A stretch of 9,208 nucleotides of DNA from a virus. Taxonomy: Duplodnaviria; Heunggongvirae; Uroviricota; Caudoviricetes. Positions 1,703-6,788 of this stretch are shown here, one piece after another. The position numbers and the translations under genes were made by a program. The notes beneath the pieces were generated by a model. That model did not search any database, was not told the origin of the DNA, and saw only the letters and a list, made by a program, of their open reading frames with translations. The stretch is taken from positions 1-9,208 of the IMG/VR virus record IMGVR_UViG_2526164634_000013, one strand, 5' to 3'. Positions within the stretch are counted from its first letter, which is position 1, and every line of letters begins with the position of its first letter.

Positions 1703-1878
1703 TGCAGCGGGTGCTTGAGGCTATCTGTCTCAGGCATGAACACCAAAAGGCAGATAGAGAAAAGCCCCAGTTAACATTATGCGTCCTGCAAGACGCTTAA
1801 CATTAATCTGAGGCCCAATCTATGTCTCACAAATGTAGGTTAGCCTCTTACGTGCCGAAAGGCAAGGAGAAGCAGGCT

Positions 1879-2034
1879 ATGAAGCAGCAAAAGGCGATGT
1901 TAATCGCCCTGATCGTCATCTGTTTAACCGTCATAGTGACGGCACTGGTAACGAGGAAAGACCTCTGCGAGGTACGAATCCGAACCGGCCAGACGGAGGT
2001 CGCTGTCTTCACAGCTTACGAACCTGAGGAGTAA
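1879..2034 (+). CDS. hokD: Hok/Gef-family type I toxin (51 aa, small membrane-depolarising peptide)
   Basis: The product MKQQKAMLIALIVICLTVIVTALVTRKDLCEVRIRTGQTEVAVFTAYEPEE has the Hok/Gef hallmark: N-terminal TM helix and conserved TRKDLCEV…R…G…EVA.F.AYE. From memory it matches E. coli HokD/RelF very closely. The family call is secure; the exact paralog name is by recall only. An in-frame upstream ATG at 1822 with GAGG SD gives the 70-aa track ORF. Confidence 0.85.
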   Translation: MKQQKAMLIALIVICLTVIVTALVTRKDLCEVRIRTGQTEVAVFTAYEPEE

Positions 2035-3539: not shown

Positions 3540-3899
3540 ATGCTCATAGATTTGGTTTTACCTTACCCGCCGACGGTGAACACTTACTGGCGACGCCGTG
3601 GCAGCACATATTTTATCTCGGAGGAGGGAAAGCGTTATCGCCGTGATGTGGCGCTTATTGTTCGCCAGCAGCAACTGAAATTAAACCTGTCCGGAAGGCC
3701 GGCAATAGAAATTATTGCAGAGCCACCGGATAAGCGCCGTCGTGACCTGGACAATATCCTGAAGGCACCACTGGATGTACTGACGCATGCGGGGCTGCTC
3801 ATAGACGACGAGCAGTTTGATGAAATTAATATTGTGCGCGGTCAGCTTGTTCCTGGTGGGCGGTTGGGGATAAAAATCACAGAACTGGAGTATGCATGA
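3540..3899 (+). CDS. rusA: RusA-family Holliday junction resolvase
   Basis: 119-aa product with PPxxNxYWRRRG…RRRDLDN…DDxQ…GGRL, matching the RusA catalytic acidic-residue pattern. SD AGAGG upstream. The stop overlaps the next start (ATGA at 3896-3899). Confidence 0.88.
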   Translation: MLIDLVLPYPPTVNTYWRRRGSTYFISEEGKRYRRDVALIVRQQQLKLNLSGRPAIEIIAEPPDKRRRDLDNILKAPLDVLTHAGLLIDDEQFDEINIVRGQLVPGGRLGIKITELEYA

Positions 3900-4585
3900 A
3901 TAACCAGTATTTACAGTTTGTTCGTGAGCAACTCATGATTGCCACCGCCGATTTGAGTGGATCAACAAAAGGGCAGCTTGAGGCCTGGCAGGAGAATGCC
4001 ATGTTTGATACAGGGCGTTACAGGCGTAAAAAAATCCGGTACCGCGATGAAGTGACTGGAAAAATGATAACGCGGGATAATCCACCAATCCCGGGAAAGC
4101 AATCGCTGGCGAAGGGGGCGTCAATTCCTCTCGTCAGTCCGGTTGAGTTTTTGACATCATCGTGGCGGCGGGCTGTTCTGTCTCTTGAAGAACATCATAA
4201 AGCCTGGTTGTTGTGGTGTTACAGCGGGAGTATTTGTTGGGAATATCAGATCGCGATAACGCAGTGGGTGTGGAATGAATTTAAAACCCGGTACGGCACC
4301 AGAAAAATTGCAGGGAAAACGCAGGAGCGCGCGAAGAAGTTGATCTGGCTGGCGGCACAGGATGTCAGAGGATGGATTACCGGGTGTGAGGTCTACCAGA
4401 GACAGGAGCTTGCCAGACTGTGTGGAGTTAAGCCTGATAACTGGAGCCATAATTATGCGAACTACTGGCGTGAGATGTGCGATATTTTTAAGAGTCTCGA
4501 TAGAGAATCTGTGATTTGCACCGTGAAAATAAGAGCGCAACAAAAAGCGACTTTTTCACGACGAGATATTGCAAAAGTCAATTAA
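3896..4585 (+). CDS. Putative late-gene antiterminator Q (long Q-like family, QuuQ/YdfT-type)
   Basis: 229-aa ORF translationally coupled to rusA, with GGAG 5 nt upstream. It is the last gene before a promoter-like AT-rich stretch and a strong terminator, which is the canonical Q position in lambdoid phages. The family is inferred mainly from synteny; I cannot confirm by motif. Confidence 0.55.
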   Translation: MNNQYLQFVREQLMIATADLSGSTKGQLEAWQENAMFDTGRYRRKKIRYRDEVTGKMITRDNPPIPGKQSLAKGASIPLVSPVEFLTSSWRRAVLSLEEHHKAWLLWCYSGSICWEYQIAITQWVWNEFKTRYGTRKIAGKTQERAKKLIWLAAQDVRGWITGCEVYQRQELARLCGVKPDNWSHNYANYWREMCDIFKSLDRESVICTVKIRAQQKATFSRRDIAKVN

Positions 4586-5145: not shown

Positions 5146-6195
5146 ATGCTTAATACTGTAAAAATATCCAGTTGTGAGTTAATCAACGCCGACTGCCTGG
5201 AATTTATCCGGTCGTTACCCGAAAATTCTGTTGACCTGATAGTCACGGACCCGCCGTACTTTAAAGTGAAGCCTGAGGGCTGGGATAACCAGTGGAAGGG
5301 CGACGATGATTACCTGAAATGGCTGGACCAGTGTCTGGCGCAGTTCTGGCGGGTGCTGAAACCTGCCGGAAGTCTTTACCTGTTCTGTGGTCATCGCCTG
5401 GCATCTGATATCGAAATCATGATGCGTGAACGCTTCAGTGTGCTGAACCATATTATCTGGGCGAAGCCGTCCGGACGCTGGAACGGGTGCAACAAGGAAA
5501 GCCTGCGGGCGTATTTCCCCGCCACAGAGCGCATTCTGTTCGCGGAACATTATCAGGGGCCGTATCGCCCGAAAGATGCCGGGTATGAGGCGAAGGGCAG
5601 GGCACTGAAACAGCATGTGATGGCCCCGCTGATTTCTTACTTTCGTGATGCGCGCGCTGCCCTGGGGATAACGGCAAAACAGATAGTGGATGCCACAGGA
5701 AAGAAAAACATGGTGTCACACTGGTTCAGTGCCAGTCAGTGGCAGCTACCGAACGAAAGCGATTATCTGAAATTACAGTCGCTGTTTGCCCGGGTGGCAG
5801 AAGAGAAACATCAGCGGGGAGAACTGGAAAAGTCCCATTACCAACTGGTCAGCACATACAGTGAGCTGAACCGGCAGTATACGGAACTGCAGAGTGAATA
5901 TAAGCATCTGCGGCGGTATTTTGGCGTGACGGCGCAGGTGCCGTACACGGATGTGTGGACGCATAAACCGGTGCAGTACTATCCAGGGAAACATCCGTGC
6001 GAAAAACCGGCAGAAATGCTGCAGCAGATAATCAGCGCAAGTAGTCGTCCTGGTGATCTGGTTGCGGATTTTTTCATGGGGTCGGGTTCAACGGTAAAAG
6101 CGGCGATGGCACTGGGGCGTCGTGCGATTGGCGTTGAACTGGAGACCGGACGTTTTGAGCAGACAGTCAGGGAAGTTCAGGATTTAATCGTTTGA
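5146..6195 (+). CDS. Orphan DNA methyltransferase, beta class (N6-adenine/N4-cytosine family, PF01555-like)
   Basis: 349-aa product with catalytic DPPY (residues 35-38) preceding the AdoMet-binding motif HPCEKP…GDLVADFFMGSGST (residues 283-316). That motif order defines the beta class, and DPPY rather than SPPY favours N6-adenine. No obvious SD before the ATG. No restriction endonuclease ORF in the window. Confidence 0.88.
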   Translation: MLNTVKISSCELINADCLEFIRSLPENSVDLIVTDPPYFKVKPEGWDNQWKGDDDYLKWLDQCLAQFWRVLKPAGSLYLFCGHRLASDIEIMMRERFSVLNHIIWAKPSGRWNGCNKESLRAYFPATERILFAEHYQGPYRPKDAGYEAKGRALKQHVMAPLISYFRDARAALGITAKQIVDATGKKNMVSHWFSASQWQLPNESDYLKLQSLFARVAEEKHQRGELEKSHYQLVSTYSELNRQYTELQSEYKHLRRYFGVTAQVPYTDVWTHKPVQYYPGKHPCEKPAEMLQQIISASSRPGDLVADFFMGSGSTVKAAMALGRRAIGVELETGRFEQTVREVQDLIV

Positions 6196-6244: not shown

Positions 6245-6320
6245 GGCCCTTTAGCTCAGTGGTGAGAGCGAGCGACTCATAATCGCCAGGTCGCTGGTTC
6301 AAATCCAGCAAGGGCCACCA
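6245..6320 (+). tRNA. ileZ: tRNA-Ile2 (anticodon CAU, lysidine type), ileZ-like
   Basis: Hand-folded cloverleaf: acceptor GGCCCTT/AAGGGCC, D-stem GCTC/GAGC, anticodon loop CTCATAA, T-loop TTCAAAT, encoded CCA. Closely resembles E. coli tRNA-Ile2 as recalled. Confidence 0.8.
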
Positions 6321-6327
6321 TCACATA

Positions 6328-6404
6328 CCGCCATTAGCTCATCAGGAAAGAGCGCCAGCCTTCGAAGCTGGCTGCGCGGAGTTCGGGTCCCCGAAGGCGG
6401 TCCA
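6328..6404 (+). tRNA. argN: tRNA-Arg (anticodon UCG as read from sequence), argN-like; atypical stems
   Basis: Perfect anticodon stem CCAGC/GCTGG with loop CTTCGAA, D-stem GCTC/GAGC, encoded CCA. However there is one A-A mismatch in the acceptor stem, one A-C mismatch in the T-stem, and the T-loop is TTCGGGT (G at position 58). Confidence 0.55.
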
Positions 6405-6417
6405 TTATCTGTATCCT

Positions 6418-6494
6418 GCGTTGTTAGCTCAGCCGGACAGAGCAATTGCCTTCTAAGTAATCGGTCACTGGTTCGAATCCAGTACAACGCGCCA
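6418..6494 (+). tRNA. argO: tRNA-Arg (anticodon UCU), argO-like
   Basis: Acceptor GCGTTGT/ACAACGC, D-stem GCTC/GAGC, anticodon stem ATTGC/GTAAT with loop CTTCTAA, T-arm ACTGG-TTCGAAT-CCAGT, encoded CCA. Confidence 0.82.
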
Positions 6495-6508: not shown

Positions 6509-6533
6509 GGCTCGCTTTTGCGGGCCTTTTTTT
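6509..6533 (+). terminator. Intrinsic terminator immediately after the tRNA cluster
   Basis: Stem GGCTCGC / GCGGGCC (one U-G pair) with loop TTTT, followed by TTTTTTT. Confidence 0.7.
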
Positions 6534-6730
6534 AAATGTCTCACAATTCAGACGGTTGACAGTTGTCTGTTTTGCGGGGAGTTTGTTAAAAGAAACTGGC
6601 ATGGTGAATCCCCCTGTGCGGAGGGGCAATCAGCGAGTAGGTATATGGGATAATCGCGGATTCAGGTGCTGGTACTGAATTCACCGGGAGGCACCCGGCA
6701 CCATGCAATGGCACATAGCGCCACTCTCCA

Positions 6731-6755
6731 GCCCCTCTCCGGAGGGGCTTTCTTA
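6731..6755 (+). terminator. GC-rich hairpin with T-rich tail (terminator-like) in the tRNA-to-esterase interval
   Basis: Stem GCCCCTC / GAGGGGC with loop TCCG, followed by TTTCTTA. Shares the core CGGAGGGGC with a second hairpin at 6611-6626. Confidence 0.4.
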
Positions 6756-6760
6756 TGGAC

Positions 6761-6788
6761 AAAAAAATCCCGCGCTGGGAGACGCGGG
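6761..6788 (-). terminator. Minus-strand intrinsic terminator-like element (hairpin CCCGCG/CGCGGG followed on the minus strand by U7)
   Basis: On the + strand this reads AAAAAAAT, then CCCGCG, an 8-nt loop, then CGCGGG. On the minus strand that is hairpin plus T-run. It sits back-to-back with the + strand hairpin at 6731-6755. Confidence 0.35.

Follow-up and report, generated by a model that had tools for sequence, protein, structure and literature searches.

In Stx-converting phages and related lambdoid prophages, a tRNA cluster separates the Q antiterminator region from the stx/lysis genes. In the Stx2-converting phage Stx2a_F403 (AP012529), the three genes are named ileZ, argN, and argO and are located between Q and stx2AB, and phage Nil3 has the same cluster order, after q and tR'. 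Our literature searches under the names ileZ, argN, and argO found nothing usable. "tRNA-pseudo" calls and variation in the cluster near stx2i have been noted in passing (PMC13641118), and the first tRNA-Arg upstream of stx2 has been reported to carry a SNP, in a paper that also mentions a "pS tRNA promoter" in Stx2 phages (PMC2858043). A different role is documented for a tRNA of the lambdoid phage 21, whose tRNA-Thr(UGU) confers protection against the P2-OLD tRNA nuclease (PMC12445682), and phage tRNAs have been proposed as a general anti-defense strategy (PMC10264068, eLife 2023). In a related prophage cluster, the same slot is occupied by Ile-Lys(UUU)-Thr(UGU)-Gly tRNAs.

The stretch of DNA analyzed here (9,208 nt in full; hereafter, the window) is the nin-to-late stretch of a lambdoid prophage, based on its Pfam and Rfam matches and its open reading frames. 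The gene order is DUF551, hok/sok, DUF968, RusA, Q antiterminator, DNA methyltransferase, three tRNAs, the STnc100 sRNA, a SASA/DUF6645 esterase, and a P21-type holin. The Q gene (3896–4585, plus strand; Pfam PF06323, E = 8.6e-83) is upstream of the tRNA cluster and the methyltransferase gene (5146–6195, plus strand; Pfam PF01555) is directly 5' of it, and the layout of methyltransferase and then tRNA cluster is also present in homologous loci. Downstream from the cluster, the window has STnc100 and the SASA esterase gene, whereas Stx phages have stxAB. No stx gene was found within the 9,208 nt, nor was any nuclease or defense gene found among the genes of the window. The window is a mosaic, at most 84% of which is covered in one place by any complete Escherichia coli genome, at identities of 93%–96%. 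Its nin region includes a hok/sok-type toxin-antisense module (1709–2034, plus strand), made up of an Rfam sok match (121 bits; 1709–1884) and a Hok/Gef ORF (1822–2034).

The first gene of the cluster is an ileZ-type tRNA with anticodon CAU (6245–6320, plus strand; detected by ARAGORN, Rfam 72.5 bits), and the third is argO, a tRNA-Arg(UCU) (6418–6494, plus strand; ARAGORN, Rfam 66.7 bits). PGAP calls the ileZ homolog tRNA-Ile in homologous loci, where the cluster as a whole is annotated as tRNA-Ile, tRNA-Arg, and tRNA-Arg, and ileZ is nearly invariant among related loci. An earlier note on this DNA, made from the letters alone, described both flanking tRNAs as canonical. The window argO carries a G30·U40 wobble in its anticodon stem owing to U40 (6458). 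This position is C in 109 of 112 related IMG/VR copies, so that the wobble in the window is shared by only three of the 112, and the common argO allele scores 70.1 bits. The spacer between ileZ and argN (6321–6327) shows a 2-bp (AT) indel polymorphism with two common forms, of which the window has the short one. Using a consensus scan only, we found a terminator-like hairpin with a T-run directly 3' of argO (6509–6533, plus strand), and the same kind of scan found no promoter on the plus strand upstream of the cluster. Presumably the cluster would be transcribed from the Q-controlled late promoter, possibly with a promoter of its own in addition. Directly beyond the cluster terminator is a full-length Rfam match to the STnc100 sRNA family (139.2 bits; 6570–6760, plus strand), which in the Stx2a phage is located downstream from stxB, adjoining AsxR. 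A convergent terminator-like hairpin occurs on the minus strand at 6769–6788.

The middle gene, at 6328–6404 on the plus strand, is the subject of this analysis. ARAGORN returns exactly this interval, 77 nt in length, as a tRNA-Arg and places its anticodon (tcg) at position 35, and Rfam RF00005 matches 6328–6401 with 42.4 bits (E = 1.8e-06), above the gathering score of 29 bits and far beyond chance. By parts, the sequence reads CCGCCAT-TA-GCTC-ATCAGGAAA-GAGC-G-CCAGC-CTTCGAA-GCTGG-CTGCG-CGGAG-TTCGGGT-CCCCG-AAGGCGG-T-CCA. The D-arm (GCTC-ATCAGGAAA-GAGC) has a perfect stem, and the anticodon arm (CCAGC-CTTCGAA-GCTGG) has a perfect 5-bp stem and a 7-nt loop with U33, in which the anticodon UCG occupies 6362–6364, just as the earlier note had read it. 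The variable loop is CTGCG, and discriminator U73 (6401) is followed by an encoded CCA; U8, A14, and G18G19 are all present. The upper half is less regular. The acceptor stem (CCGCCAT/AAGGCGG) contains an A6·A67 mismatch (6333/6395), the T-arm (CGGAG-TTCGGGT-CCCCG) contains an A52·C62 mismatch (6380/6390), and the T-loop has G58 (6386) in place of the A of the conserved U54-U55-C56-R57-A58. Thus, neither the 7-bp acceptor stem nor the 5-bp T stem is fully paired. The earlier note had recognized all three irregularities, and the Rfam alignment flags the same two nonstandard pairs.

The gene is argN, the center of the ileZ-argN-argO cluster. This assignment follows from the ARAGORN and Rfam calls, a 92.2% match to the annotated argN of Stx2a_F403, the gene order after Q, and the labeling of near-identical copies as tRNA-Arg by PGAP. 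It is therefore a member of a known gene family rather than a new kind of tRNA, and its allele is a widespread one. When we searched with the 77-nt gene as query, 261 phage GenBank records matched, almost all of them Stx-converting phages, and the phage copies are 92.2%–93.5% identical to the window allele. The argN of Stx phages (Stx2a_F403 and 933W-type) shares with the window the anticodon arm and UCG anticodon, C1-G72, U15 opposite G48, U73, and the CCA. Three of these, C1-G72, U15 opposite G48, and U73, are family traits that the earlier note did not mention. The anticodon, which the note set against the AGA/AGG-reading anticodons often assumed for phage tRNA-Arg genes, turned out to be the ordinary one: it is present in the canonical Stx2a-phage gene, and when phage records were searched with the anticodon arm left free, every argN copy retrieved had it (further copies were retrieved by anticodon-arm patterns).

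The two genes from Stx2a_F403 and the window differ by six substitutions. At three of these positions, the phage gene has U67 (pairing with A6), G52 (pairing with C62), and A58, and so folds into a mismatch-free cloverleaf with a canonical T-loop. A fourth, U63, forms a G51·U63 wobble, and the remaining two are in the D-loop, at positions 17 and 20a. The canonical homolog thus does not share the imperfect stems. In an allele table built from IMG/VR loci, variation among the common intact alleles is limited to tolerant positions (17, 20a, 26, 44, R57, and 63, the last being C or U opposite G51), and intermediates occur naturally: A52 only (Nil3), A67 only (locus L085), G58 only (L022 and others), and A52 with G58 and an intact acceptor stem (L270). 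Because the canonical argN has U67, G52, and A58, and because one- and two-lesion intermediates exist, we conclude that the three defects are allele-specific and derived, not traits of the family. In the lineage leading to the window, U67 to A breaks the 6:67 pair, G52 to A breaks the 52:62 pair, and A58 to G removes the conserved partner of T54 (the T54·A58 pair).

Rfam scores fall stepwise along this natural series. Intact argN alleles score 54.8, 56.0, and 58.4 bits; alleles with A67 only, G58 only, and A52·C62 only score 54.1, 54.0, and 50.4 bits, respectively; A52 with G58 scores 45.5 bits; and triple-defect alleles score 42.4 (window), 42.9, and 43.4 bits, dropping to 33.8 bits when G10U is added. 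The window gene is 12–16 bits below intact alleles and 24–30 bits below the neighboring tRNAs, although intact argN also scores below its neighbors. A score in the normal range, which the earlier note would have counted against its reading, is thus not what we see, although the gene is above threshold. The middle slot scores <29 bits in an Stx2e prophage, where PGAP calls it "tRNA-OTHER," and in strain S6, where PGAP makes no call. Most triple-defect copies retain the anticodon arm, D-arm, and encoded CCA, and about 26% of copies in the defect clade have a fourth lesion (CCA to UCA, G10U, or G50A). However, some lesion (C11·A24, C2·A71, A3·C70, U54G, or a deletion) is also seen in about 22% of copies outside the clade. 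It looks, therefore, as if the whole argN family, and not only the window allele, is under loose constraint, and the defect clade differs only modestly from the rest.

Could the gene nevertheless be a working, if atypical, tRNA-Arg(UCG), in which the mismatches and G58 are tolerated and which is processed, charged, used for CGA and CGG codons, and kept by selection? The E. coli ArgRS identity set comprises A20, C35, and G36 or U36, with discriminator A73 or G73. In the window gene, A20, C35, and G36 are intact (A20 was assigned by numbering the D-loop, AUCAGGAAA, against E. coli tRNA-Arg). The discriminator is U73 rather than a purine, but this is a trait of nearly all argN copies and not a defect of the allele. 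Like the chromosomal tRNA-Arg genes of E. coli, argN is class I with A20, C35, and G36 or U36. The host set (argQVYZ with ICG, argX with CCG, argU with UCU, and argW with CCU) lacks UCG, and it has G1 and A73 or G73, in contrast to the UCG, C1-G72, and U73 of argN. E. coli reads CGA only via the ICG tRNA and CGG via the minor CCG tRNA. In the window ORFs, CGA and CGG occur at 6.9 and 11.3 per 1000 codons and jointly make up 27% of Arg codons; for AGA, AGG, and AUA, which correspond to argO and ileZ, the values are 6.5, 6.9, and 11.7 per 1000. All five exceed their E. coli averages by a factor of about two to five. An intact argN would thus supply the UCG tRNA-Arg that E. coli lacks, reading CGA and CGG codons that are frequent in phage genes, and this codon-supply role fits the usage in the window. 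It might also replace host tRNA-Arg under attack by tRNA-cleaving defenses.

That the window copy still serves in this way is possible but, in our judgment, doubtful. Besides the CGA and CGG usage, the arginine identity nucleotides, U33, G18G19, U54-U55-C56, and the CCA are all in favor, as is an Rfam score above the gathering threshold. The gene also passes ARAGORN and PGAP, with no pseudogene flag on near-identical copies. G58, moreover, is found in alleles with otherwise perfect stems, so it may be tolerated by the tRNA. Against this reading, all three changes are at positions conserved both in intact alleles and in the general tRNA model, and the additional lesion in about a quarter of the clade's copies counts against it too. 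The note had also raised the idea of a suppressor-like variant. A suppressor or recoding tRNA is scarcely conceivable here, given that UCG pairs with the sense codons CGA and CGG, that the anticodon loop is an unexpanded 7-nt loop with U33, and that canonical argN has the same anticodon arm; we consider it ruled out on the sequence. Among the note's three suggestions (functional, suppressor-like, or decaying), that of a decaying gene is best supported.

The predicted thermodynamics (ViennaRNA), which leave out tertiary contacts and base modifications, point in the same direction. For the window gene, the cloverleaf is at −20.0 kcal/mol and the minimum free energy (MFE) structure at −29.4 kcal/mol, and this gap of 9.4 kcal/mol argues against a functional tRNA. 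Four intact alleles, in comparison, have cloverleafs at −28.3 to −31.3 kcal/mol, only 1.5–4.4 kcal/mol from their own MFE, so that the predicted loss of cloverleaf stability is 8–11 kcal/mol. In the MFE structure, the T-arm is replaced by a competing hairpin, UUCGG-GUCC-CCGAA (6382–6395, plus strand), in which tRNA positions 54–58 pair with 63–67, and this hairpin dominates the predicted ensemble. G58 and A67 each add one pair to it. It follows that a different fold does not rescue the gene: the hairpin absorbs G58 and A67 but abolishes the T-loop, leaving no L-shaped tRNA.

The fact that two of the three changes strengthen one alternative hairpin could be taken to favor a reading in which the changes in the upper half serve an adaptive, nondecoding role. 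The gene might then mark the late transcript for processing by RNase P/E, act as a decoy or as a nuclease-resistant substitute in conflicts with tRNA-cleaving defenses, or form a structural switch based on the 54–58/63–67 pairing. We found no convincing covariation in support of the hairpin among 23 distinct alleles. Positions 58 and 63 can pair in 16 of the 23, compared with about 14 expected from base frequencies, which counts against such a role, and because this is barely above expectation we read the hairpin as a probable misfold rather than a selected structure. On the same 23-allele alignment, 95.4% of cloverleaf cells are paired, and the exceptions cluster at 6:67 and 52:62, within the defect clade. 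The three lesions are predicted to destabilize the cloverleaf and favor a misfold. Anti-defense tRNAs offer some precedent for a nondecoding role, both in the protection of phage 21 against P2-OLD (PMC12445682), likewise involving a tRNA gene on a lambdoid phage, and in the general proposal for phage tRNAs (PMC10264068). However, the published resistance changes are in the anticodon arm, and here that arm is unaltered save in a U32 sub-variant, the changes in the window gene being outside it. Also, unlike the tRNA-Thr(UGU) of phage 21, argN has no known nuclease target, and the lack of any nuclease or defense gene in the window further weighs against this role. Overall, we regard an adaptive, nondecoding origin of the changes as highly improbable.

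The same three lesions occur in 108 IMG/VR contigs and in hundreds of genomes, so a one-off sequencing error or singleton mutation can be dismissed. The argN query matches 2009 of 5426 complete E. coli genomes, often with several copies each, and in 830 of 2020 matching records the best copy has 95%–99% identity to that of the window. Of the complete E. coli genomes with argN, roughly 40% (~800) have the triple-defect allele. The samples are redundant E. coli isolates rather than independent lineages, so that the counts indicate prevalence and not independent events. There are three main haplotypes across the IMG/VR contigs and complete genomes, and the carriers include the E. coli type strain, in which the surrounding prophage is visibly degraded, and O157:H7. 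The RefSeq copies (for example, in ATCC 11775, which has only one near-identical copy, and O157:H7 FRIK944) share the three lesions and the context, are 97.4%–98.7% identical to the window gene, and are annotated as tRNA-Arg. Near-identical copies already have this annotation in hundreds of RefSeq genomes. No 100% match to the window allele was found in the 5426 genomes (best, 98.7%). Its C44 (6372) is private, with U44 in 107 of 107 other triple-defect IMG/VR copies.

In contrast, the triple-defect allele is absent from all 261 argN-containing phage GenBank records, given that no record is ≥95% identical to the window allele. Among loci with enough downstream sequence, stx follows the cluster at 0 of 79 triple-defect loci versus 10 of 69 loci with other alleles (Fisher p = 3e-4). 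Linkage to stxAB, absent for the window gene, is not obligatory, as many intact alleles also lack stx. The absence of the allele from phage records and from every stx-linked cluster sampled argues against a functional tRNA, whereas its wide distribution as a few haplotypes argues for one and could reflect retention rather than decay. Per-site diversity across 98 IMG/VR loci with all three genes is 0.016 for ileZ, 0.022 for argO, 0.059 for argN (0.076 outside the 17 nt fixed by the search pattern), and 0.18 for the argN-argO spacer. Because the value for argN is above those of its neighbors and below that of the spacer, argN is, by this measure, clearly less constrained than ileZ and argO, yet not neutral.

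Taken together, we think it probable that the window argN is a weakened or nonfunctional allele carried in stx-negative prophages under relaxed selection. The anticodon arm and D-arm are intact, with the three lesions in the upper half, and weakened folding, processing, or handling by EF-Tu or ArgRS would make the gene a hypomorph or a pseudogene in the making. That the gene is argN is shown; that it has lost function is inferred.

The argN body (acceptor CCGCCAT/ATGGCGG, D-arm, T-arm, and encoded CCA) also occurs with other anticodon arms: with a Lys-UUU arm in APEC IMT5155, with an Arg-UCU arm in a Serratia prophage, and with hairpins of 4- to 11-nt loops, accepted by no tRNA model, in Stx2e-type prophages, Salmonella, Citrobacter, Klebsiella, Kluyvera, and elsewhere. 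Our searches for such tRNA-like elements fixed only the first 20–25 nt, and conservation of the 3' half is therefore an independent observation. The pattern suggests turnover of the anticodon arm on a conserved upper half. In related prophage tRNA clusters, middle-slot variants of this kind (L004:1629–1709, L005:1622–1721, L006:1616–1692, L128, L133, L139, L140, L144, L147, and L239–L264) have a Lys-UUU arm with C33, an Arg-UCU arm, a PGAP "tRNA-OTHER" call, or a hairpin with a 4- to 11-nt loop. The persistence of the acceptor, D, and T arms in relatives whose anticodon arm has been exchanged or no longer resembles one favors a nondecoding role, but the lesions of the window allele sit exactly in the part that the wider family conserves, which speaks against an adaptive origin for them.

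One such tRNA-like element, unannotated and 81 nt long, is present in the yahL/yahM-yahN intergenic region of 5169 of 5426 complete E. coli genomes (L238:2501–2581; also L136, L141, L142, L143, and L146). It has argN-like acceptor, D, and T arms and a CCA, with a 7-bp hairpin with a 6-nt loop replacing the anticodon arm. All 81 positions are identical in E. coli, E. albertii, E. ruysiae, and E. whittamii, in which the flanks are 7%–75% identical, and the annotated yahM start codon is inside the 3' acceptor strand. No Rfam match was found for the element even at E ≤ 1, and the yahM literature yielded nothing informative on it. These tRNA-like elements may be relics, attachment sites, or functional tRNA-like RNAs. 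They may form a family with the body CCGCCAT...ATGGCGG-N-CCA in which the arm is swapped (Arg-UCG, Arg-UCU, Lys-UUU) or is a hairpin with a 4- to 11-nt loop. The idea that argN is part of such a larger, as yet undescribed family of tRNA-like RNAs, spanning enterobacterial prophages and chromosomes and with an upper half that functions independently of decoding, is improbable.

If, as we favor, the window argN is a weakened allele, many non-Stx lambdoid prophages of E. coli probably bear an impaired copy under the annotation "tRNA-Arg," although this has little practical consequence. When phage-borne tRNAs are counted, or when codon supplementation or anti-defense is argued for in EHEC and other E. 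coli, intact argN and the triple-defect allele should be kept apart. Alleles with anywhere from zero to four lesions occur naturally and provide a ready test set for how much upper-half damage a bacterial tRNA tolerates. The shared argN body, including the ultra-conserved yahN-adjacent element, is the only lead that might matter more. If the wider family is real, the upper half might, for example, signal processing, act as a decoy or a replacement against nucleases, or provide an attachment site, and the changes in the upper half of the window argN would be functionally meaningful rather than simple decay.
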